Positions 7,206 to 52,329 are shown, counted from the first letter of the stretch. The stretch: DNA of 64,000 bases from Eledone cirrhosa (GCA_964016885.1 OZ024742.1:133300001-133364000); one strand, 5' to 3'. Program-made: numbers and translations. Notes: generated by a model from the sequence alone, not told the origin.

Positions 7206-7207
<2 letters not shown>

Positions 7208-9447
7208 CGGGCTCGCCTCTACCTTAAAAAAGATCAAGAATAGCACTGGAATTATTGTACCAGCGGATAAAACTGGAAACCTATATAATTTAGAGTACAA
7301 AACCTACAACAAATGCATTACAAACGATATCTCTAAAATATACAAAACATCAACACGAGAAAACCTAGCACACATAAATAAACAGGCGAAATCAATAATG
7401 ACTGAACTGAGTATTGACGACAGGACTTTTCTCTACAACCCTAGGACACCGAGAATATCCATTAAAGACCTTATACCGGACTTCCAGTCAAAACTACCGG
7501 TCAGGCTCATAGCCCCCTCCAAATCGGACCTTGGTAGACTTAGCAAATCAATCATTGACGGAATCTTACCTGAACTTAAGATTAGAACTAAACTCAGCCT
7601 ATGGTCTTGTACAAAGGAGGTAATAGACTGGTTTTGTGCCATTGAAACTAAGTCGAATGTTCGATTAGTCCAATTGGACATTACGAACTACTACGCATCT
7701 ATATCCCCAATCATCCTTTACAAGGCACTGATCTCAGCCATGAACAGATCAAGCCTCACTAGAAGAGAAGTAGACATAATAATAACAGCTAGGAAAACTT
7801 TACTAGAATTCGACGGTAGACTTTGGGAACGACAGAATAGACCAGATAACTTTGACATCACCATGGGATCGACTGACTCGGCACAGGTTACAGATGTAGT
7901 AGGCATATACCTCCTAAACATATTAACGGACGAGATCCCCTCCTTGGGCGGTGGCTTATACCGGGATGATGCCCTACTAATGACCCGTGGACTCAATAAC
8001 AGCCAACTGAATAGAATACACAAACGACTTAGGTACATCTTTAAGACCCAAGGTTTAGCAGTAGAAATTGAACCTAACAATAGGACAGTTAACTTCTTAG
8101 ACGTCACCCTAGAATTAGACTCAGGCCTCTACCGTCCATACCACAAACCTAATGAAAATCTTAGATACGTCAATAGACACTCCAACCACCCTAAGAGCAT
8201 AATTAACTGTATAGATAAAAGCGTCTCCAACAGAGTGTCCACACTGTCGGCTAATGAAAACATCTTCAAGCAGCACGCAGAATACTATGACTCCGTACTT
8301 ATAAACGCTGGTTATACTGAGAAGATTTCTTACGTCGACCCAAATAGAACCGTAACACAGCTAAACATAGCAGGACCCTTAGAAACGAACTTAGAAGAAA
8401 CCTCCACACATAGGATACACCATAACCTTAGACGCCCCCTAGCCGGCAGCGCAGACAGCACCACACATAACTGTCTAGGAGATAAAGCCATACTCTCCAG
8501 CCCCAATAACAATTCCGACTATCGCACACGTTTGCGTACCAATAGAGACAAGGGACATAACGCCAATAGATTACCTGGAACCTATTTGAAACATACGCCT
8601 GACCAAAACACACACAATCTCACTAAACAACGCATAAAGTGAAGTAGACCTGTCACGTGGTATAAACCCCCCCCCCTATTCTATACACGTCGCCACTAAC
8701 ATACCGGGAACCATTTTCAGGGCTCTCGAACAATCTTTTCCACACACACACAAATACCACAATCTCTTCAATAAACACACCGTAAAATTCTCTTTCTCCA
8801 CAGCACCAAACCTAGGCCACACAATAGCACACAATAATAGGGCAAAAATACAAAAACACATGTTTTCCCCTCAACAAACCACCACCACAACCCAGAACCA
8901 AACCGCACACACAACACAAAACAACAACACACACACCACACCAACACCGCACGACACCAACCGCCACCGTTGCACCGCACCGGTTACACCCAAATGCAAC
9001 TGCAAAAAACGAGACGAATGCCCACTAAACGGGCAGTGCCTCGTTAAGAATATTGTTTACCGGTGCGATGTCACAGCCGGCAATAAGGAGTACTCATATA
9101 TAGGTGCGACATCCACTACGTTTAAGGAACGCTGGTATAACCACAGAAGCTCCTTCAAACATAGATCGAAACGACCCCAAACAAAACTGGCCGATCTGAT
9201 CTGGGACCTCAAGGACCGGAATATTGAACCCCGGATTTCGTGGTCAGTAAAAAGACGCATGGCATACATCTCCAGTGACAGAAACCACTGCAGATTATGC
9301 CTAGCTGAGGCGGCGGAAATAATTAAACTTGATTCCGCCATAAACTATAGGTCGGACATAATTGTCAATTGCAGACACACTAGGATGCACACCTTTTCTG
9401 CACAAACTTTCGCGGGAGGACCACGCACTAACCATGACCCACCATAA
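7206..9447 (+). pseudogene. PLE reverse transcriptase + C-terminal GIY-YIG endonuclease, broken by one stop and one frameshift
   Basis: Frame open from 7206: VPADKTGNLY, QLDITNYYASI, ITMGSTDSAQVTD, GLYRDD, VNFLDVTL, YHKPN..SNHP. TGA at 8640, then +1 shift in the C10 run (8667-8676, W-Y-(N)-P-P motif). Then CNCKKRDECPLNGQC, IVYRC..YIG..FKERWYNH, CRLC, CRH. Confidence 0.95.
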
Positions 9448-11924: not shown

Positions 11925-12207
11925 TTACTGAACGGGTTGAGCCGGCTTCTTCCCTTGTCCTGACGGCATCCCGAACCATGGCAGCCCACGCACGACGTTC
12001 ACGGCCTAGGTCACTGGAGAGAGCGAGCCAAATACGGTTCCTTCGGCGCAGACCGAATACCTGCGGACCTGAGAGTTCGGAGAGGTCCTCCTTGATCGTC
12101 GTTGCACAGGTCTTCAGCTGCCCGCCAACGCGCTTGTGCCAGTTAGGGAGTGGAGGTGGGAGGAGAACATCGCGGATCAGCTCACCCTCAGGGCGTGGGG
12201 CCGTGTG
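11925..12207 (-). mobile_element. RTE-clade LINE 3' fragment
   Basis: Minus frame reads HTAPRPEGELIRDVLLPPPLPNWHKRVGGQLKTCATTIKEDLSELSGPQVFGLRRRNRIWLALSSDLGRERRAWAAMVRDAVRTREEAGSTR; GC-rich relative to flanks; GTAAGTA tail remnant. Confidence 0.85.
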
Positions 12208-12314
12208 AATAGTGAAGTTTTAAATCAACATATTTATACACTAGTCCTACAAACTATAGAGTGCTACTTATCCGATATTTACATTACTTTATTGTGCTAC
12301 AATAAAACTCACCT

Positions 12315-12319
<5 letters not shown>
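12204..12319 (-). mobile_element. 5' half of the ~270-bp HHR mini-element (family of 24188-24456)
   Basis: TGTGAATAGTGAAGTTTTAAATCAACAT...AGTCCTACAAACT.TAGAGTGCT...CAATAAAACTCACCTCCTA matches 24320-24456 and 27690-27960. Confidence 0.85.
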
Positions 12320-12365
<46 letters not shown>

Positions 12366-12368
<3 letters not shown>

Positions 12369-12741
12369 AAAATGGGGAGAAAAATACTACTGGTAGCACA
12401 TGGATAACATGTAATAAAATAAGTCCCTCATCAGTGATTTGCCGACGATCATAGATATTTCATTGCATTAAAAATCATATACCTCACGTCGGTGCAATAA
12501 TAACTAAATTAAGTTATTAGAACAATTAAAACGCGTAAAGCGAGTGAGACAGGAAAACAACAAAGAGTAGAGCCAACCGTAGAGGAAGGAAACAAGCTTC
12601 ATAGTTATTCTGTTAGCGTAAGCTAGGTGAATATATGAGCGCTTAGAAAAAAGACCTTTCGCAAACGAATGCAATGTAAGAAAGAGAGAAATTGCTTTCG
12701 TTACGAACGGGGTGAAGTGAGGAGAGGAGAAACAGTGAGTG
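12366..12741 (-). repeat. Inverted, diverged partial copy of the 514-bp unit
   Basis: Reverse complement of the unit 3' part; identical over unit positions 12868-12992, with substitutions outside that block. Confidence 0.93.
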
Positions 12742-12762
12742 TATACATATATATATATATAT

Positions 12763-14564
12763 AGCTTATGCTAACAGAATAACTATGAAGCTTGTTCCCT
12801 TCCTTCTACGGTTAGCTATCCTCTTTGTTGTTATCTTGTTTCACTCGCTTTACGCGTTTTAATTGTCCTAATAACTTAATTTAGTTATTATTGCACCGAC
12901 GTGAGGTATATGATTTTTAATGCAATGAAATATCTATGATCGTCGGCAAATCACTGATGAGGGACTTATTTTATTACATGTTATCCATGTGCAACCAGCA
13001 GTATTCTTCTCCCCATTTTTTCACATATATTTACCTACTGCGATTCTGTTTTTTTCTCTCTCTCTCTCTCTTACTGCTCCCTCGCTCTCTCTGTTTCTCC
13101 TACTTTCTTTCGCCCCCTCTGTCATGTCAGTTAACTCTTCCTCACACTTCCACTCACTCACTCACTGTTTCTCCTCTTCTCACTTCACCCCGTTCGCGAC
13201 GAAATCATTTTCTCTCTTTCTCACATTTGAATTCGCTCCTGAAAGGTCTTTTTTCTAAGCGCTCATATATTCACCTAGCTTATGCTAACAGAATAACTAT
13301 GAAGCTTGTTCCCTTCCTTCTACGGTTAGCTATCCTCTTTGTTGTTATCTTGTTTCACTCGCTTTACGCGTTTTAATTGTCCTAATAACTTAATTTAGTT
13401 ATTATTGCACCGACGTGAGGTATATGATTTTTAATGCAATGAAATATCTATGATCGTCGGCAAATCACTGATGAGGGACTTATTTTATTACATGTTATCC
13501 ATGTGCAACCAGCAGTATTCTTCTCCCCATTTTTTCACATATATTTACCTACTGCGATTCTGTTTTTTTCTCTCTCTCTCTCTCTCTTACTGCTCCCTCG
13601 CTCTCTCTGTTTCTCCTACTTTCTTTCGCCCCCTCTGTCATGTCAGTTAACTCTTCCTCACACTTCCACTCACTCACTCACTGTTTCTCCTCTTCTCACT
13701 TCACCCCGTTCGCGACGAAATCATTTTCTCTCTTTCTCACATTTGAATTCGCTCCTGAAAGGTCTTTTTTCTAAGCGCTCATATATTCACCTAGCTTATG
13801 CTAACAGAATAACTATGAAGCTTGTTCCCTTCCTTCTACGGTTAGCTATCCTCTTTGTTGTTATCTTGTTTCACTCGCTTTACGCGTTTTAATTGTCCTA
13901 ATAACTTAATTTAGTTATTATTGCACCGACGTGAGGTATATGATTTTTAATGCAATGAAATATCTATGATCGTCGGCAAATCACTGATGAGGGACTTATT
14001 TTATTACATGTTATCCATGTGCAACCAGCAGTATTCTTCTCCCCATTTTTTCACATATATTTACCTACTGCGATTCTGTTTTTCTCTCTCTCTCTCTCTC
14101 TCTTACTGCTCCCTCGCTCTCTCTGTTTCTCCTACTTTCTTTCGCCCCCTCTGTCATGTCAGTTAACTCTTCCTCACACTTCCACTCACTCACTCACTGT
14201 TTCTCCTCTTCTCACTTCACCCCGTTCGCGACGAAATCATTTTCTCTCTTTCTCACGTTTGAATTCGCTCCTGAAAGGTCTTTTTTCTAAGCGCTCATAT
14301 ATTCACCTAGCTTATGCTAACAGAATAACTATGAAGCTTGTTCCCTTCCTTCTACGGTTAGCTATCCTCTTTGTTGTTATCTTGTTTCACTCGCTTTACG
14401 CGTTTTAATTGTCCTAATAACTTAATTTAGTTATTATTGCACCGACGTGAGGTATATGATTTTTAATGCAATGAAATATCTATGATCGTCGGCAAATCAC
14501 TGATGAGGGACTTATTTTATTACATGTTATCCATGTGCAACCAGCAGTATTCTTCTCCCCATCT

Positions 14565-14568
<4 letters not shown>
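12763..14568 (+). repeat. Tandem array of a 514-516 bp non-coding unit (one partial plus three full copies); candidate retrozyme
   Basis: Period 514/516/516 (e.g. 12936, 13450, 13966, 14482); units near-identical apart from (CT)n length and a few substitutions; units joined by a CATATAT remnant; (TA)n on both sides. Confidence 0.97.
12865..12965 (+). ncRNA. Permuted (type-II-like) hammerhead-like motif; also at 13379-13479, 13895-13995, 14411-14511 (+) and 12423-12523 (-)
   Basis: GTCCT-[AATAACT taattt AGTTATT]-[ATTGCA..ccgacg..TGCAAT]-GAAA-TATC-TA-[TGAT cgtcggcaa ATCA]-CTGATGA-GGGAC. Manual fold only. Confidence 0.55.
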
Positions 14569-14621
<53 letters not shown>

Positions 14622-16735: not shown

Positions 16736-17489
16736 GTTATATTGATAGTTAGAGAGGCTGAGACACACAAAGCTACAGTAAGTGATTTGTGAGACGTTAT
16801 GATAGGAATGTTCAACATTATAGGGCGGGGAATAACGATTGTTGATATGAATGATGTCAGCAGAATAGGGTATACAGGATTCAAAAAGTAATGGAGAGAG
16901 TTACAGGAAAATGAGGGAGAGTCTTGTTCTGAATAATGTCATATATGTTTTCGGTATATGTCATGTCTGGGCCTGTCTATGCATTGTCTGTGTGTATATA
17001 GGTGTAGTATATATTAACTTCACGTACAATAAATACAAATTTGGAGGAATGCTTAAGTTGAGTAAATCAAACCAAGTATTTGACTGCTACCCCAGCGGTC
17101 AGCAGGGCAAGGCGTGTTTTCTGGGGTTCTGCTAAAGTCAGCAGCAACACACAACCACTTGTTGCTACACACAGGGAAAAAAAACATAAATAATCCTCCG
17201 AAATAGAGATATGTTACATTTATATCTAAATATCGTTATTATTATTTACTGATGTCCCTCTGTGTTTAACGTGAAATACATGTTCATTAATATATGTATT
17301 TTATGTATTTGTATATATATATATATATATATAGATAGATAGATATCATTCTGTGAACTCTTCAGTGGCTGGGATTCTTTTCTTTGTTTTTTGTGCCTCT
17401 CCTTTGTTCTGTCCTACGCCATCTACAACAACAAGATGGCGTAGGACAGAACAAAGGAGAGGCACAAAAAACAAAGAAAATAATCCCCA

Positions 17490-17532
17490 GTCACTGAAGA
17501 AGTCACATAATGTGTGACGAAAGAACTTTGAC
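17490..17532 (+). ncRNA. Minimal type-I hammerhead ribozyme preceded by an inverted duplication (hairpin 17359-17500)
   Basis: GTCA-CTGAAGA-a-[GTCACAT aat GTGTGAC]-GAAA-GAAC-TT-TGAC. Confidence 0.82.
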
Positions 17533-17740
17533 AATATATAAACAACCATCTGGTTGTGGAACCAACCAACCAACCGGACATTTATTAATTCCTAAATTTA
17601 TAAATTTATTATAATAAATTGAAGTGAAACACTTGTGCGTGTGTTTCTTATTGGCAACATAACCCTCCCATAGTATAACAATATCGGTTTCAACACAGGT
17701 TTTCAGATAAAGAATCTTGCTAAACAAATTCAGAAACGAA

Positions 17741-17860
<120 letters not shown>

Positions 17861-24190: not shown

Positions 24191-24456
24191 ATCAAAAGAT
24201 GGTTAAATGAGTTCCATGTATTTTATTATGCGCATTTCAAAAACAAATACCATCATGCAATAACATTTGTGTTTTCATCAGATAAAATAGGAGGACATGA
24301 TATGAAGGTTAAAAACACTTGTGGATAGTGCAGTTTTAAATCAACATATGAAAAGAACTCTTATATATTATGTATACTCCAGTCCTACAAACTGTAGAGT
24401 GCTTCTTATCCGATATCTGCATTGCTTTATTGTACTACAATAAAACTCACCTCCTA
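24188..24456 (-). mobile_element. ~270-bp non-coding HHR mini-element or solo pseudo-LTR
   Basis: Shares both ends with the 27553-27960 copy and one end with 12204-12319; bounded by microsatellites. Confidence 0.82.
24219..24289 (-). ncRNA. Minimal type-I hammerhead ribozyme
   Basis: Minus strand: TATTTTAT-CTGATGA-[aaacACAAATGTTAT..ATGGTATTTGTtttt]-GAAA-TGCGCA-TA-ATAAAATA; 8-bp helix I; palindromic loop 3. Confidence 0.9.
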
Positions 24457-24589
24457 CAAATATGTATATATATATGTATATACATATATATACACAAAAA
24501 CATACACATACATAACCATATACGCATATCCATATAAACGCACGTACACACAAACATACGCATACATACGGCCACATATATATGTATAT

Positions 24590-27587: not shown

Positions 27588-27658
27588 TATTTTATTATGC
27601 GCATTTCAAAAACAAATATCATCATCCGATGATATCTGTGTTCTCATCAGATAAAATA
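27588..27658 (-). ncRNA. Minimal type-I hammerhead ribozyme
   Basis: TATTTTAT-CTGATGA-[gaacACAGATATCATC ggat GATGATATTTGTtttt]-GAAA-TGCGCA-TA-ATAAAATA. Confidence 0.92.
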
Positions 27659-27776
27659 GGGATACATGATATGAAGCTTAAAAAACACTTGTGAATAGTG
27701 AAGTTTTAAATCAACATATGTTTATTTAAAACTTCACTATTGACAAGTGTTTTTTAAGCTTCATATCATGTATCCC

Positions 27777-27837
27777 TATTTTATCTGATGAGAACACAGA
27801 TATCATCCCATGTTTGTGAAATGCGCATAAAAAAATA
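27777..27837 (+). ncRNA. Minimal type-I hammerhead ribozyme (helix II partly deleted)
   Basis: TATTTTAT-CTGATGA-gaacacagatatcatcccatgtttgt-GAAA-TGCGCA-TA-AAAAAATA. Confidence 0.75.
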
Positions 27838-28004
27838 CTTGGAACTCTTTTAACCATCTTTTGATCTCATATTATTTATACTCAAGTCCTACAAACTGTA
27901 GAGTGCTACTTATCCGATATTTGCATTGCTTTATTGAGCTGCAATAAAACTCACCTCCTACACACATATATATATACATGTGTGTGTTTGTGTGTGTGTA
28001 TATG

Positions 28005-29350
28005 TAGTCAACCTATACTCTAACATCCCTCACAAACTAGGAATAGAAGCTATCCAATTCTGGCTGGATAATTACCACAATGAACTCCCACAGCGCATCA
28101 AAAAAGAATTCGTGATAGAGGGACTCAAATTTATCTTGGAGAACAATTACTTCTTTTTCAATAACAAACCCTACAGGCAGAAATCTGGGACCGCTATGGG
28201 AACGAAAACAGCCCCCACTTATGCCAACCTCGTCATGGGATACCTGGAAATCACCTTCTACACAAAAGTACTAAACAAATTTGGAAACACTCTCCAATTA
28301 CACATAGAAAGGAACTGGAAACAATTCTAGATGACTCCTTCATCCTTTGGCACGAAAACATCGAGAAACTTAAAATTTCACAGCCTTATAAATGGGCTCA
28401 ACACGAATATTAACTTCACGATGGAATACAGCCATCAACAACTCCCCTTCCTCGACATTCTCATTAAGATCCATAACAAAAAAATAGAAACAGACATATA
28501 CTACAAGCCCACAGACTCCAAGCAATATCTTCCTTTCAACTCTTGCCACCCTAGACACGTTAAAATTAATATTCCCTACAACTTAGCCAAGAGAATCTGT
28601 ACTATAGTCTCCAATAAAAATACCTGCTACTTACGGCTACAAGAACTAAATGACACACTCATAGGCAGGGAATACCCTGCATCACTAATTGACAATGGAA
28701 TCCAAAGTGCCCTAAAACTCAGTACCCAGGACCTTAGAAACCCTAAAGTAAATCAACCGAAACTAAAAGCTCTTCCATACATCTCCACACACAACCCCCT
28801 CAACAATGAGGCCTTTGACACCATCCTCCAGAACATCCCTGTGTTGAAAAAGGACCATAGAATGAAACAAATCCTACGAACACACGATATCATAAAGAGC
28901 AAAAGACAATCTAAGTCAATGAAAAACATCCTAACACATGCCAAAGTACTGCCAAACTCAACAACGAAACCCACAGTAAAAAAATGCGATAGACCCAACT
29001 GTGGCATATGTATCAACCTAATAAAGGGTTCGGAATTCTATTTCAAAGAAGGACAACGTTTTATAGTAAAACACAATCAGAAAATCTAATATATATATTA
29101 ACTTGCTCAGGTTGTCGAGAACAATACATAAGCCAGACCAAAATCAGCTTCCGGCAACGCATGACTGTCCATAGATCCCAAATTAAATTACGGAAATACA
29201 GGAAAATACCAATGAGTGAACACATTGATACCTGTGCCGCCCAAAATCATCCCAACTTCAGAATCTTTCCCCTCTACAAATTTAAAGATAATGCCACCCA
29301 CACCCAGCGCATCAGCAAGGACTCTCATTTTATTAACAAATACGGACCCC
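28005..29350 (+). pseudogene. Neptune-type PLE RT + Cys linker + GIY-YIG, 5'-truncated and frameshifted
   Basis: VNLYSNIPH, ILENNYFFFN..YRQKSGTAMGTKTAPTYANLVMG; F-(L)-D-D broken by a 1-nt deletion near 28328; LPFLDI..TDIYYKPTD..SCHP; CDRPNCGIC; NLIYILTCSGCREQYISQT..RQRMTVH. Confidence 0.92.
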
Positions 29351-33509: not shown

Positions 33510-35981
33510 TATTTATTAAAATAACAGATTAAAGTTTAAGCAAAGAATCGCTGCTTTCACCCGTAACAGGATCTTCTGAAACTAACAAAGTCAATCTGTA
33601 AATGCAGAAGTGAATATTTCAAAAAACGTTGCAACCGGAGGAAGACAGGAAGACGATACTTTGGTTCGTGGAAACGTTCCCTGGCAAAGAACGGGAAAAA
33701 ACGAATATAATACGTCATTATTTGGAGGGGTGAAAAACAATTACACGCAAAGACAGAACAACGTTTATGGTATAAAAGAAGTCGTAGACTAATATTCTCT
33801 TAGGTGGTTCATAGAGACGTTCTCTGGCAATGAACAGAAAAAACGAAGGTAATACGTCATATGTGGATCGTGGAGAACAATTGCACGCAAAGACAAAACC
33901 ACGTAAATGATATAACTGAAGTCGTAGACTAAAAATTCTAACTAGGAAACCGAATGATTCTCCTCTTCAGAGTTTAGAATAAAGTAAATAAAATACAGAG
34001 GTAATTGAAGTTAAATAAATACATACACGCATCCAAATACATACATACACAAGCATAGGCGAAAACACTCACCATAGGTATACAAATACACGCACATATA
34101 AATTGTGGGTGTGTGAGCGTGCGTGTATACAAATAATTAAATAAACGTATATAAATAAATAAATACGTATATAACAAGCGCACACACATACCTACATCTA
34201 AATACACACATGTTCGGAGACTACGTCAACCAAAACACGAAGTACACATATACACAAACCCTACATACGTACGAACCCGCATACTCACAGAGACGCAAAA
34301 CTCACGTGTACACATAACCAAAGGCATATATAAAAATATACGTCATAACATATACAATCAAATATAAGTACGAGAAAGTATACGTACCTTCACAAAACAT
34401 ACAGGTAATATATACTTACCTATGCAAATAAGTAATGGTTTAAACATAACATATACTTAGCTACCACATCAGGACGTAAAATATCCGCGTATAGATCGTA
34501 CTATCCGTTGGGGTATAATGTGGGGCTGTAATACAGGAAAGTTTTGTGCATTTTACAAGCCGAAATTGCCTCAGATGTTTTGTTTAAGATGTGGTCTTTG
34601 GCGTAGAGTATTTCCAGGGCCTCAGCGGCGTAGATTTACATGGTCTTTTATTTCCGTCATACGATCTAGCCCTAGCTAGGATCTCCCAGTGTAAATTATA
34701 TTGGGTGTGGTTGTCTTTCAGACTCCAGATATAAGCTGAAAGTCACGTCATATTCCTTCTTAGAGGGTAACGAAAAGAATGGGTATGCATGTAAAGACGC
34801 TAACTGAATCTATTGGCGGTTAACCCTATGTAGGCCCTACGGGACGTGGATGTTTCAACCTTAAATTTGTAGACAATGTTACTAGAGAGGCATTTCCCGG
34901 ATAGGGGGCAATCAACCTGATTCCTACAATTACAGTTAGTACTAACAACAGAGTTGCACGTGTTCCTACGGCTAGGTAGTCTAGCTAAATTTGATGCTGT
35001 GATGTTATGTGCAAGATTAGGAGTCTTTCAGTAAGAAATTTTAATAGTATTTCTATTAAAAGTTTTACTAGACTTATGTGAAGGTGGAAAATGCTTCGTA
35101 ATAAGGTATAGACAGATCTTAGCTAATGCTGTGGCCACCTCCATATTATATGGTGGGTTATACCATATAATACGTCGGGATATATTTCTTTTAGGTCTAT
35201 TCTCGTACTCTGTATATGCTACCTTATCGACAAATCCACTCCGAGCAAGAGCTTCATTGTAATATGTGGAATGGTCGTTGAAAATATGCTCGTTTGTAGA
35301 TAGACGGGAAAGCCTCAACTAAACGTTTCTTACCAGGTTCTTGGTTATGCTGGCAGGATGGTTGGAATGCTTACTAATGTAATTAAGCGTATCATTCGGC
35401 TTTCTATACGGGTAATACAAGCCATTCGATAAATTGAAGGTAACGTCGAGGTAATTCACGACCGAGAGGTTAGCTTCAACCTGTATAGAGAGGTTGAACA
35501 CTTTAAAGAAGGCTGTGAGTTCTTTTCTGAACCTGTGGCAAGCACAAGGGCCGCACTTAGTCATGCTCAAAAGACCGTCATCACGGTACAAACCACCACC
35601 CGCGTTGGGGAATTCGTCCTTGATAGAGAAAAGAAGGAAAAGGCCGATAAGATCAGTAACCTCCGCAGAATCGCTGGCACCCATACTCACATCGAATGGG
35701 GTACTATTGGATTTATTAATCCAAATAGAGTCGTCGAAATTAATCACCGAATTACGGGCATTGAGGATGACATCAATTTCGAAATCCTTAACCACTGTGA
35801 GTGTTTTAGCGAAATTGATAGCTCTTAGGAGAAGTGGTAAAGTGATGGAAGAGTAGTAATTATTGATGTCGAATTGGATAAAACGGCAATGTTGCTTGTT
35901 GCATATGCCGTTGAACCAATCAATCACCGCGAAAGAATTGTTCCACAGTGCAAGAGGGGCCAAACTTATAATTTCAGGTAT
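33510..35981 (-). mobile_element. PLE family A, inverted arm (RT core to 3' end), pseudogenised
   Basis: QFDINNYYSSI, VSMGASDSAEVTD, GLYRDDG, PYRKPN..SNHP, WYNPPY, CNC..CPL; mirrors 36583-39150. Confidence 0.95.
33533..33583 (-). ncRNA. Hammerhead-like motif with CAGAAGA (U4A) core; also at 23567-23616 and 39079-39129 (+)
   Basis: AGTTT-CAGAAGA-[tCCTG tta CGGGt]-GAAA-GCA gcgattctt TGC-TT-AAACT; all three helices pair. Confidence 0.65.
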
Positions 35982-38900
35982 GGTACCAAGCAGGAAAACA
36001 TACCTAAAACTCCTGATACAGAAAACAGATGCGTTCATTAAAAGGTTGCGTTGGCGTGCCTTTTATTTTGATAATTCGCGAAAAGCAGACAACAAACAGG
36101 ATAAATTTGGGTTTAAAACCTATAATAACCATCCGTGTAACCCAGCATTGATATCCTTCGAAAATGATGCCTTGAAACTCATACAGAGTATCAAATTTCG
36201 AATAGGAGCAATTCCTTCAAGCAGGACCTGAAGAAAAGTATTCGTTCTATTAAGGATTCTAATGCCGTGCACGTCCATTCCGACAAAACTGACAATATAT
36301 ATCAAGTGGAGCGCAGTACTTACCATCAACTACTACATAATGCTGTAACTAAGGATTACCGTAAAACTAATAGGTGCGTCATCAATGAAATCAACGATGC
36401 TGGGTTTAAAATCACCTCTGAGCTCAACATCCTGGACCGGACCGAACCTCTGGACCCTATTTCTCACCACTTTACCCTGAAGGATCACAAATCCAATTTT
36501 CCGAACACACCACCCTATTCGGCTTATTAACCCTACGAAGTCAGATTTAGGTAGACTGAATAAAAGAATTCTTGATAGAATTATACCTGAAATTAGAAGT
36601 TTGGCCCCTCTTGCACTGTGGAACAATTCTTTCGCGGTGATTGATTGGTTCAACGGCATATGCAACAAGGAACATTGCCGTTTTATTCAATTCAACATCA
36701 ATAATTACTACTCCTCCATCATTTTACCACTTCTCCTTAGAGCTATCAATTTCGGTAAAACACTCACAGTGGTTAAGGATTTCGAAGTGGATGTCATCCT
36801 CAATGCCCGTAAGACGGTGACTGTTTCGACGACTCTATTTGGATTAAAAAATCCAATAGTACCCCGTCGATGTGAGTATGGTCGCCAGAGATTCTGCGGA
36901 GGTTACTGATCTTAACGACCTTTTCCTTCTTTTCTCTATCAAGGACGAATTCCCCAACGCGGGTGGTGGTTTGTACCGTGATGATGGTCTTTTGAGCATG
37001 ACTAAGTGCGGTCCTCGTGCTTGCGACAGTTTCAGAAAAGAACTCACAGCCTTCTTTAAAGGCTTAGACTTCTCTATACAGATTGAGGCCAACCGCTCGG
37101 TCGTTAATTACATCGACGTTACCCTCTATTTATCGAATGGCTTGTATTACCCGTATAGAAAGCCGAATGATACGCTTAATTACATAAGTAAGCATTCCAA
37201 CCATCCTGCCAGCATAACCAAGAACCTGGTAAGAAACGTTTCGTTGAGGCTTCCCCGTCTATCTACTAACGAGCATATTTTCAACGACCATTCCACATAT
37301 TACAATGAAGCTCTTGCTCGGAGTGGATTTGTCGATAAGGTAGCATAGACAGAGTACGAGAATAGCCTAGAAGAAATAGATCCCGACGTATTATATGGTA
37401 TAACCCACCATATAATATGGAGGTGGCCACACCATTAGCTAAGATCTTTCTATAACTTATTACGAATCATTTTCCTCTTACACATAAATATATTAAAATT
37501 TTTAATAGAAATCCTATTAAAATGTATTACTCTACGACTCCTAACCATGCATATAACATCACAGCTTCAAATTTAGCTAAACTAGCTAGCCGTAGGAACA
37601 CGTGCATCCCTGTAGTTAGTACTAACTGTAATTAAGGAATCGGGTTGATTTCCCCCTATCCGGGAAATGCCTCTCTAGTAACACTATCTACAAATGTAAG
37701 GTTAAAACATCCACGTCCCGTAGGGCCTATATAGGGTTAACCGCCAATAGATTCAATCAGCATCTTTATATGCAAACCCATTCTTTTCGTTACCCTCTAA
37801 GAAGGAATATGACGTGACTTTCAGCTTATATCTGGAGTCTAAAAGACAACCACACCCAATATAAGTTACACTGGGAGATCCTAGCTAGGGCTAGATCGTA
37901 TGACGGAAATAAAATACCATGTTACCTCTACGCCGCTGAGTCCCTGGAAATACTCTACGCCAAAGACCACATCTTAAACAAAACATCTGAGGCAATTTCG
38001 GCTTGTAAACTGCACAAAACTTTCCTGTATTACAGCCCCACATTATACCCTAACGGATAGTACGATCTATACGCGGATATATTACGTCCTGATGTGGTAG
38101 CTAAGTATATGTTATGTTTAAACCATTACTTATTTGCATAGGTAAGTATATATTACATGTATGTTTTGTGAAGGTACGTATACTTTCTCGTACGTATATT
38201 TGATTGTATATGTTATGGCGTATATTTTTATATATTCTGGTACATATGCTTTTGGTTATGTGTATACGTGAGTTTTGCGTTTCTGTGAGTATGCGGGTTC
38301 GTACGTATGTAGGGTGTGTGTATATGTGTACTTCGTGTTTTGGTTGACGTACGTATGTAGGGTTTGTGTATATGTGTACTTCGTGTTTTGGTTGACGTAG
38401 TATGTAGGGTTTGTGTATATGTGTACTTCGTGTTTTGGTTGACGTATCTCCGAACAGTTGTGTATTTACATGTAGGTATGTGTGTGCGCTTGTTATATAC
38501 GTATTCATTTATTTATATATGTGTATTTAATTATTTGTATACACGCACACACACACACAAATTATAAGTGCGTGTATTTGTATACCTATGGTGAGTGTTT
38601 TCGCGTATGCTTGTGTATGTACGTATTTGGATGCGTGTATGTATTTATTTGATTTCAATTACCTCTGTATTTTATTTACTTTATTCTAAACTCTGAAGAG
38701 GAGAATCATTCGGTTTCCTAGCTAGAATTTTTAGTCTACGACTTCAGTTATACCATTTAAGTTGTTTTGTCTTTGCGTGCAATTGTTCTCCACGCTGCAC
38801 ATATGACGTATTATCTTCGTTTTTTCCGTTCATTGCCAAAGAACGTCTCTATGAACCACCTAAGAGAACATTAGTCTACGACTTCTTTTATAACATAAAC

Positions 38901-39238
38901 GTGGTTCTGTCTTTGCGTGTAATCGTTTTTCACCGCTCCAATTAACGACGTATTATATTCGTGTTTTCCCGTCTTTGCCAGGGAACGTTTCCACGAACCA
39001 AAGTATCGTCTTCCTGTCTTCCTCCGGTTGCAACGTTTTTTGAAATATTCACTTCTGCATTTACAGATTGACTTTGTTAGTTTCAGAAGATCCCGTTAAG
39101 GGTGAAAGCAGCTATTCTTTGCTTAAAATTTAATATTTTATTTTAATAAATATTTGCTGTACGGTTCTTATATATTTAATATATATTTATCCTTATCGAG
39201 CCCTCTTTGGATTTTAGTCTTTGAATTTATTATTATTA
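35980..39238 (+). mobile_element. PLE family A (Hydra-type), near full-length, multiple stops and frameshifts
   Basis: N-terminal PSRKTYLKLLIQKTDAFIKRLRWRA, VHSDKTDNIY, FTLKDHKSNF, GLYRDDG, WYNPPY; endonuclease remnant to ~38050; ~1.2 kb 3' UTR; ends in (TA)n. Confidence 0.95.
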
Positions 39239-51630: not shown

Positions 51631-51664
51631 CATACATATACACATATATGTATATATATATATA

Positions 51665-52329
51665 GAAAGGATAAAAGGACGATTGATTATTCCTTCATTG
51701 CATTTATTCATAGGTGACGCGCGTTTCGCCACTGATCAGCTCAAGGTTCGATCTATATCGATCCTACCCGACTCAATAATCCGTAGCTCGACGGACCTTC
51801 TTAAAATGCTATGAGAAAATGAAATACATGCTATGTAATAAAGTCAGGTATTCAAGAGTTTGACAAAATGAGTTGTTTTGATTGGTGGGAAGGGTCAAGG
51901 CGATGTACTGGCCAGTAGTGTATATGGGGGTCCCCAACATCTCACCATCACCAACATCTCACCATCCAGCCCACCCCCATATACACTACAGGCCAGTACA
52001 TAGCCTTGACCCTTCCCACCAATCAAAACAACTCATTTTATCAAACTCTTGAATATCTGACTTTATCACATAGCATGTATTTCATTTTGTCATAGCATTT
52101 TAAGAAGGTCCGTCGAGCTGCGGATTATTGAGTCGGGTAGGATCTATATAGATCGAACCTTGAGCTGATGAGTGGCGAAACGCGCGTCACCTATCAATAA
52201 ATGCAATGAAGGAATAATCAATGGTCCTTTTATCCTTTCTATATATTACACTCTGTATAGCTCTACACGTCATCACAGAAGTGAACCTAAACATCGAGTG
52301 AACCTGCAGTAACTCCTAGTTACACCCCT

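Follow-up and report, generated by a model that had tools for sequence, protein, structure and literature searches.

The window analysed here is a stretch of 64,000 nucleotides from Eledone cirrhosa (GCA_964016885.1 OZ024742.1:133300001-133364000). It holds a non-coding, Penelope-like repeat with a unit of 514-516 nt, inserted in (TA)n and present both as a head-to-tail array and as an inverted copy, in which five copies of a putative ribozyme are located:

12751..14579, plus strand: about 3.5 units arranged head to tail, with 97.5-99% identity; a (TA)n run terminates the array about 65 nt past the core
12355..12741, minus strand: copy of the unit in inverted orientation, truncated at its 5' end and joined head to head; identity 89-93%; (TA)n at 12317-12365
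12865..12965, plus strand: predicted ribozyme copy 1, in the order S-G-C and with stem II as a four-way junction; predicted cut A12910/T12911
13379..13479, plus strand: ribozyme copy 2, identical to copy 1; predicted cut after 13424
13895..13995, plus strand: ribozyme copy 3, identical to copy 1; predicted cut after 13940
14411..14511, plus strand: ribozyme copy 4, identical to copy 1; predicted cut after 14456
12423..12523, minus strand: ribozyme of the inverted 5' copy, differing from copy 1 by a single C-to-T change in P0; cut predicted on the minus strand after 12478

The window scan reveals no ORF of 200 aa in the array, and the Rfam scan of the window at the gathering threshold gives 0 matches. 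In the descriptor scan of the window, carried out for all six block orders, S-G-C alone is returned, at the five copies. The conservation that the original prediction reported for the inverted unit is reproduced: it differs from direct copy 1 at 20 positions in 283 nt, none of them in 12868-12992, and its single change in the outer helix, C12867T, gives a G-U pair.

Genome-wide, the 39-nt core pattern (up to 2 mismatches) yields 3,363 matches and the cross-family S+G pattern 7,537, with 0 matches for the reversed control in both cases. A (TA)5 run lies within 100 nt of the core in 109 of 175 distinct copies, and two family-specific ends, 40-50 nt apart, are observed. The (TA)n target, the inverted 5' copy and the tail with two 3' ends mark the 515-nt unit as Penelope-like; tail and insertion marks correspond to those of Penelope-like elements in the accessible parts of PMC8557442 and PMC11167929, and these features are common to other Penelope-like clades also, so that they are not specific to Naiads. 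At C1:81545289-81598236, about 100 units (~53 kb) of the 515-nt family form one array, which suggests satellite-like amplification after insertion. Metagenome contigs give 0 matches to the family-specific pattern. The 118 pattern matches in viral contigs were rejected as chance, the filter for stem I and 10.1-11.1 pairing being passed by 0 of 118 vs 97 of 137 loci of the own genome.

Other hammerhead-like cores and Penelope-like fragments are scattered through the window. A minimal type I hammerhead-like core (CTGATGA, short stem II, GAAAC-GCGC-GTC, palindromic stem III) at 52155-52190 on the plus strand, inside the inverted repeat 51658-52246, is typical of Penelope-like dimeric hammerheads and does not pass the stem filter of the window scan. 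The fold-back insertion at 17345-17760 carries a type I hammerhead-like core (CTGAAGA, 7-bp stem II, GAAA) at 17494 on the plus strand, with a partial inverted copy at 17365 on the minus strand; it belongs to the same family as the 3' end of the element with a C-terminal GIY-YIG at locus L036. A fold-back repeat family at 27600-27900 and 24281-24500, in which CTGATGA is followed about 30 nt on by the palindromic GAAA-TGCGCA-T, is possibly another Penelope-like hammerhead, and a piece of this family at 12204-12354 adjoins the element studied here. Pieces of Penelope-like ORFs were recognised by eye at 7206-9444 (plus), 28331-29086 (plus) and 35322-36062 (minus), the last one inside a 5.3-kb inverted-repeat structure (33691-38972); a weak GIY-YIG match, below the cut-off, is found at 8638-9444, and the other pieces have no Pfam match.

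The proposed fold of copy 1 is composed of the following parts, all on the plus strand and given with their pairing in the alignments described below:

12865..12868, plus strand: 5' strand GTCC of P0, which pairs with GGAC 12962-65 and closes the ribozyme; 92.5% paired, with two alignment rows sitting one column out of register; outer pair G-C in 10 copies and A-U in 8
12869..12890, plus strand: inserted hairpin TAATAACT/AGTTATTA, 8 bp; 96.9% paired, two-sided change at 5 of 8 pairs
12891..12895, plus strand: 5' strand TTGCA of the distal arm of stem II, pairing with TGCAA 12921-25; 90% paired, two-sided at 2 of 5 pairs
12896..12901, plus strand: CCGACG of the stem I-stem II pseudoknot, pairing with CGTCGG 12941-46; 94.7% paired, two-sided at 5 of 6 pairs (22 copies)
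12905..12916, plus strand: block S, with the stem III strand GGTAT, H17 = A12910 and the stem I strand TGATTT; U16.1 = 12909; assigned from covariation and from A-rich insertions at the bond
12917..12934, plus strand: linker TTAA (4 nt) and block G, with the stem II strand TGCAA, N11.1 = T12926, GAAA 12927-30 and the stem III strand ATATC
12935..12940, plus strand: linker with a conserved AYGA between stem III and the pseudoknot; no consistent pairing; a similar linker is seen by eye in the Octopus Naiad consensi
12941..12965, plus strand: 3' strand of the pseudoknot and block C, with AAATCA 12948-53, CTGATGA 12954-60, N10.1 = G12961 and the P0 strand GGAC

Both core boxes named in the original prediction, GAAA and CTGATGA, are thus in place. 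The order in which the blocks are read is given by comparison with a diverged homolog, L016, met by chance, which cannot form the helix I (TGAT/ATCA) proposed there. In L016, AGACAA before CTGACGA pairs with TTGTCT, located 3' of GGTAT-C about 25 nt upstream of GAAA. The partner of GGTAT is ATACC, located after GAA. The window is arranged in the same manner (GGTAT-A TGATTT vs ATATC and AAATCA), and therefore its blocks read S, G, C, which is a non-circular permutation.

Further families were collected by pattern searches, which returned 2,547 matches with H17 = C or U, 48 and 1,099 matches with a changed stem III strand after GAAA, and 96 and 54 matches for two older families, the upstream strand being left free in the last two sets of searches; the reversed controls of the family searches gave 0 or 1. 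Families with a changed strand after GAAA retain an upstream strand that is complementary or forms G-U pairs. Compensated versions of stem III are GATGT/ACATC in L179, GGCAT/ATGCC in L209, ATGGT/ACCAT in L327-L356, and both GATAT/ATATC and GACAT/ATGTC in L265-L294. The 30 loci of the 48-match search are mostly single mutants of the main families, with the upstream strand unchanged.

In the alignment of the 73-nt core, comprising 22 copies from different families and almost free of gaps, 93.5% of cells pair, vs 72.9% after shuffling and 29-47% when the partners are slid, and two-sided changes occur at 18 of 23 pairs, counted as sequences and not as independent events. For the full motif (20 copies), 94.0% of cells are paired and 18 of 35 pairs show two-sided changes; five rows of this alignment come from the search for 15.2 mutants and account for 5 unpaired cells there. 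Both alignments consist of hand-picked related copies obtained with core-fixing patterns, so that the invariance of the core is partly built in. In the 22 copies, stem III (GGTAT 12905-09 with ATATC 12930-34) is 100% paired, with two-sided changes at 4 of 5 pairs and an invariant A15.1-U16.1, and stem I (TGATTT 12911-16 with AAATCA 12948-53) is 93.2% paired, with two-sided changes at all 6 pairs. Compensatory partners are also found outside this genome: T12892C and A12924G, which face each other in the stem II arm, occur at equal depth in organism B contigs, and the pseudoknot partners G12898A and C12944T are present in contigs of organisms B and C. Because these contigs list compensatory partners and raw DNA reads of two other samples share variants, the motif is not an assembly artefact. 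At the level of sequence, covariation demonstrates the following helices of the proposed fold: P0, the inserted hairpin, the distal arm of stem II, the pseudoknot between stems I and II, and stems I and III themselves.

This outcome divides the helices of the original prediction, for which a genome-wide covariation check had been advised, into two groups. The loop-loop helix between CCGACG and CGTCGG, P0, the inserted hairpin and the stem II arm are upheld, whereas the proposed stems I and III and the pairs drawn at the junction are not. The outer helix GTCCT/GGGAC pairs through GTCC/GGAC; its fifth pair, T12869-G12961, forms in only 6 of 20 copies (failing in 14), and T12869 pairs instead with A12890 in 19 of 20. 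Similarly, both hairpins described between the outer strand and GAAA are present, but the pair A12890-T12926 is formed in only 7 of 20 copies (failing in 13), and G12961 faces T12926.

Following CUGAUGA, only 10.1 faces 11.1, and the nucleotides that come next form P0 (GGAC/GTCC) with the 5' end of the motif; the strands TTGCA, which completes stem II, and CCGACG come 3' of the 8-bp hairpin at that end. In such a fold, the chain would exit into P0 rather than continue stem II, and the 5' strand completing stem II and the pseudoknot would be held by P0 and the hairpin; judging from the pairings, P0, the hairpin, the stem II arm and the core would converge on a four-way junction. The 10.1-11.1 pair is formed in 16 of 22 copies (72.7%, four pair types), the rest of stem II being supplied by the separate strand via the junction, and it is unpaired in 6 of 22 and 5 of 20 copies (A-C, A-A, C-A); so loose a pair could lower the activity. 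In the old family L327-L356 (e.g., L336:1425-1549, plus strand), P0 seems by eye to be joined straight to the stem II arm, with the hairpin seemingly absent. Taking this family into account, the inserted hairpin may be optional to the fold, and the form without it is a possible intermediate between a plain CSG hammerhead and the four-way arrangement.

The hammerhead core nucleotides C3-U4-G5-A6-N7-G8-A9, G12-A13-A14 and A15.1-U16.1 are kept in 22 of 22 rows, with A, C or U as H17; CUGAnGA and GAAA are set by the search patterns, and U16.1 and H17 were left free in four of the searches. TAA and GAAA are likewise invariant in the 22-row core alignment, where they are partly fixed by the patterns. 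The isolated stems I and III of the window family are A+U-rich and weak (-2.3 kcal/mol each), and the nested minimum-energy fold, obtained with a method that cannot form pseudoknots, does not contain them.

The closest known counterpart is the type-SGC hammerhead (HRIMA-1 and variants), as described in the available sections of Eckert et al. 2023 (PMC10085705). It resembles the motif in its S-G-C order, its core nucleotides, the short linker between stem I and stem II (4 nt here) and the helix joining the far ends of both stems (6 bp here). In type SGC, however, block C is uninterrupted, whereas here the stem II strand does not follow CUGAnGA and is located at the 5' end, reached via P0 and the hairpin. 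According to the same sections, no known alignment has insertions longer than 1-2 nt at this site of block C, and the four-way junction of the motif breaks the assumption on block C stated there; in the text of the supplement, figures aside, a word search finds neither 'junction' nor 'insertion'. Type CSG, represented by two natural sequences in the accessible part of that paper, has the same knotted cyclic block order, to which the motif adds the junction while opening the chain within stem II. In formal terms, the fold would be obtained from the knotted CSG/SGC cycle by inserting a domain between 10.1 and 10.2 and opening the chain at that point. In vitro cleavage is reported for hammerheads of both types, SGC and CSG (PMC10085705). 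The motif would work like SGC, yet it is neither strictly SGC nor type II, and it is proposed to be a new hammerhead variant for which cleavage is predicted.

A stem II that is very short next to the core has a precedent. In PMC3088659 (2011), a cleavage rate above 1.2 per min is given for a natural hammerhead that contains a pseudoknot and whose stem II is a single pair; this hammerhead shares with the motif the Watson-Crick pseudoknot between stems I and II and the tolerance of a very short proximal stem II, but it is a circular permutation with an unknotted three-way core, unlike the motif of the window. Hammerhead variants with additional helices are mentioned in PMC13725137, which cites Eckert 2023 among three references; another of its references, PMC10162972, has no such junction in its available sections. 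Within a literature coverage that was incomplete, with subscription papers mostly outside it, no report was found of this fold, nor of SGC or CSG hammerheads in eukaryotic genomes or in Naiads.

As pairing in cis and in trans is indistinguishable by covariation, the strands could also pair between neighbouring units, for instance S and C with the next G, to give an unknotted dimeric hammerhead as in other Penelope-like elements. The element is indeed tandem, and minimal Penelope-like hammerheads act as dimers according to the available part of PMC6765202. Such a dimer is nevertheless very improbable for this motif: linker lengths are small and constant (4 nt from stem I to stem II, with the 73-column core nearly gapless), as in the monomeric type SGC, stem III has its full 5-6 bp and is not palindromic, P0 closes a single unit, and many copies of the motif are single (non-tandem).

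Independent information on the predicted cut is provided by insertions. Genome-wide, 26 insertions of 1-12 nt are found at the predicted bond, 9 of which, in a classification made by eye, are untemplated A- or purine-rich runs of 4-8 nt, and the remainder comprises inversion junctions, expansions of TA, duplications and single bases. At the cleavage site of the original prediction, situated in a similar TA/TGAT context, A-rich runs account for 0 of 13 insertions, which are duplications, a foldback or single bases. In the flanking controls (gaps of 3-12 nt), the corresponding values are 0 of 4 three bases downstream, where 3 of the 4 rows are also counted among the 26, and 0 of 12 four bases upstream. 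Fisher's test gives p = 0.018 against the first control and 0.0005 against all three control bonds (9/26 vs 0/29). A further control after CUGAnGA was dropped as too loose, with 52 matches and 426 for its reversed control. The A-rich insertions at the predicted bond suggest cutting in vivo, and their simplest reading would be that cleaved 3' ends are tailed and then rejoined before or during reverse transcription.

The 5' ends of the copies are less specific with respect to the cut. A total of 415 copies are without the GG of stem III yet retain position 1.1 onward, and 564 are truncated further in; the 5'-truncated copies do not single out the predicted cut, most rows among the matches listed lying at TA microhomology. 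At L241, L243, L248, L249, L260 and L262, fold-back junctions are observed in which the direct arm starts at, or a few bases from, position 1.1; in these loci the predicted cut is sometimes also the point of 5' inversion.

The fold might also be kept for another task, such as a binding or priming platform for the protein of the element, and cleave poorly or only when protein-bound. The anole Penelope-like hammerhead requires protein to cleave and is dispensable for insertion in vitro, as described in the available part of PMC11167929, the 10.1-11.1 pair is loose, and conservation extends to the TAA and AYGA linkers, for which no catalytic role is known. This explanation is very improbable, since all catalytic positions, including A15.1-U16.1 and a permitted H17 (A, C or U), have been retained in diverged families, and A-rich insertions occur at the predicted scissile bond. 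The circular type II (G-S-C) hammerhead of the original prediction, with a one-pair stem III (A12930-T12935), a 4-bp hairpin stem I (TGAT/ATCA) and a cut after UA 12935-36, can hardly be correct: every pair of it can be drawn in the window family and TA-TGAT is present twice in the window sequence, but its stem III is paired in 6 of 22 copies (27.3%) and its stem I in 59.1% of cells (two of the four pairs being unpaired in 12 of 22 copies), compared with 100% and 93% for the S-G-C stems in the same rows, U12935 varies between families (T, A or G, with A or G usual outside the window family, and with T12935A common in raw DNA reads of two other samples), and A-rich runs are absent from the insertions at its site. 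The supposed hairpin loop holds the cleavage block GGTAT-A/TGATTT (12905-16), and the cut is predicted after 12910, 26 bases upstream of the site first proposed. The broader claim holds: the hammerhead architecture is undescribed, contains additional helices and a loop-loop pseudoknot, and escapes standard descriptors, Rfam returning no match. With these alternatives weighed, S-G-C self-cleavage after A12910 is regarded as very likely.

The 515-nt unit, a non-coding tandem repeat with one predicted hammerhead in each unit, corresponds in these respects to the animal non-LTR retrozymes, which have been proposed to be non-autonomous Penelope-like elements (accessible parts of PMC7229834 and 10.64898/2026.07.22.740005). 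Those retrozymes carry type I hammerheads in units of ~150-450 nt, and the motif of the window is not type I. Retrozymes are also expressed as linear and circular RNA; no RNA run is among the sequencing runs listed for the window motif. The animal retrozymes of Li et al. 2026 (10.64898/2026.07.22.740005) were, in the sections available, collected with type I descriptors only, which are unable to match the S-G-C fold.

The relationship to Naiads is based on Craig et al. 2021 (PMC8557442), whose accessible portions describe these elements as targeting (TA)n and lacking canonical hammerheads, some of them holding core motifs that fit no descriptor and are listed as 'HHR_core' and 'HHR_half_core'; cephalopod Naiads are described there as long inactive. 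Naiads share with the window the (TA)n targets, the inverted 5' copy, the partial tandems and the tail, the window element differing in being 515 nt long and non-coding. By eye, the succession of P0, hairpin, stem II, pseudoknot and S-G-C is recognised at the 3' end of at least 9 of the 54 Naiad consensi in File S5 (Amil, Aacu, Anas, Obim, Ovul, the entry before Ppla, one in part 9 and two in part 12). Naiad Bfor, with a short stem I, is a probable tenth carrier, and at least 6 nematode Naiad consensi (1_, 2_ and 3_Nbra and three more) carry clean type-CSG hammerheads. These counts are lower bounds, as they refer to the CTGATGA, CTGACGA and CTGAGGA places shown and to the first 30 of 43 CTGAAGA, with cores across line ends left out. 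The hairpin loop and the linker of the window motif closely match, again by eye, those of Naiad_Obim and Ovul, which suggests a cephalopod genome. No hammerhead core is present in the three bivalve Naiad 3' ends seen in File S5 part 20, and several spider or ostracod Naiad candidates in the available consensi gave no parse by eye. The three bivalve Naiads (the entry before Sglo, Sglo and Olur) have a conserved G+C-rich 3' stretch in common, which could be a different ribozyme or structure.

An autonomous Naiad with the motif (N-terminal GIY-YIG, CxC, DKA, RT) was not found in the genome, the Naiad-like RT found being decayed. A GIPMG-type pattern gives 0 matches in the genome, and a DKA-type pattern gives 1, in a decayed Naiad-like RT. 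No intact core lies downstream of decayed Naiad-like RT at 30 loci inspected by eye over 1.5 kb (80 related RT pieces), nor is Naiad RT present upstream of the family closest to the Octopus Naiad motif at 30 loci (by eye, 1.5 kb). The decayed Naiad-like RT at L296:4486-5900 (plus strand) ends in (TA)n; its damaged 3' region has an S-G-C-like order with GGTAT, GAAATACC-ATGA and CUGAUGA with the first base changed, and no recoverable stem I. The Penelope-like ORF at L036 was rejected as the partner of the motif: its GIY-YIG is C-terminal (below the Pfam cut-off) and it has its own type I hammerhead core, and therefore the motif element there is a separate insertion. The repeat of the window probably descends from a Naiad retrotransposon, namely from its 3' end. 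Taking into account that the window family is 97-99% identical and that cephalopod Naiads have long been inactive, its present mobiliser possibly belongs to another Penelope-like clade.

Overall, it is considered highly probable that the motif represents a conserved RNA structure in which every hammerhead core nucleotide is found, in S-G-C order, and which self-cleaves after A12910 and resides in a non-coding Penelope-like tandem repeat, likely of Naiad 3' origin. Read-through transcripts of the array would be cut into unit-length RNAs, and some of the cleaved 3' ends would be oligo-adenylated and rejoined, either by ligation into circles or by a template jump of the reverse transcriptase. A Penelope-like enzyme acting in trans would prime at a cut (TA)n target, and reverse transcription would start at either of two internal sites, ~65 and ~115 nt downstream of the cut. 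Copying across the junction would then generate head-to-tail multimers with an inverted 5' copy. With moderate confidence, this scheme may be extended to Naiad retrotransposons: they would carry active non-circular hammerheads across animal phyla (CSG in nematodes, and S-G-C with a split block C in cnidarians, an ostracod and cephalopods), and the A-rich scars would record cleavage, tailing and rejoining of the template RNA.

S-G-C with a split block C would constitute a seventh wiring of the hammerhead, beyond the six permutations thought to exhaust it. The SGC and CSG RNAs of Eckert et al. come from metatranscriptomes and metagenomes, none of them from the genome of a known eukaryote as far as the accessible text states (PMC10085705); non-circular permutations, so far obtained from environmental sequence, would hereby be placed in animal genomes, in thousands of copies. 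Naiads would have seemed to be without hammerheads because the descriptors used could not match them, and the argument that hammerheads are dispensable passengers of Penelope-like elements would be weakened. If the proposed scheme is true, elements of this Penelope-like clade would normally pass through a circular or end-jumped RNA intermediate, and the junction scars allow the question of a circular template in Penelope-like retrotransposition to be tested on genome data.
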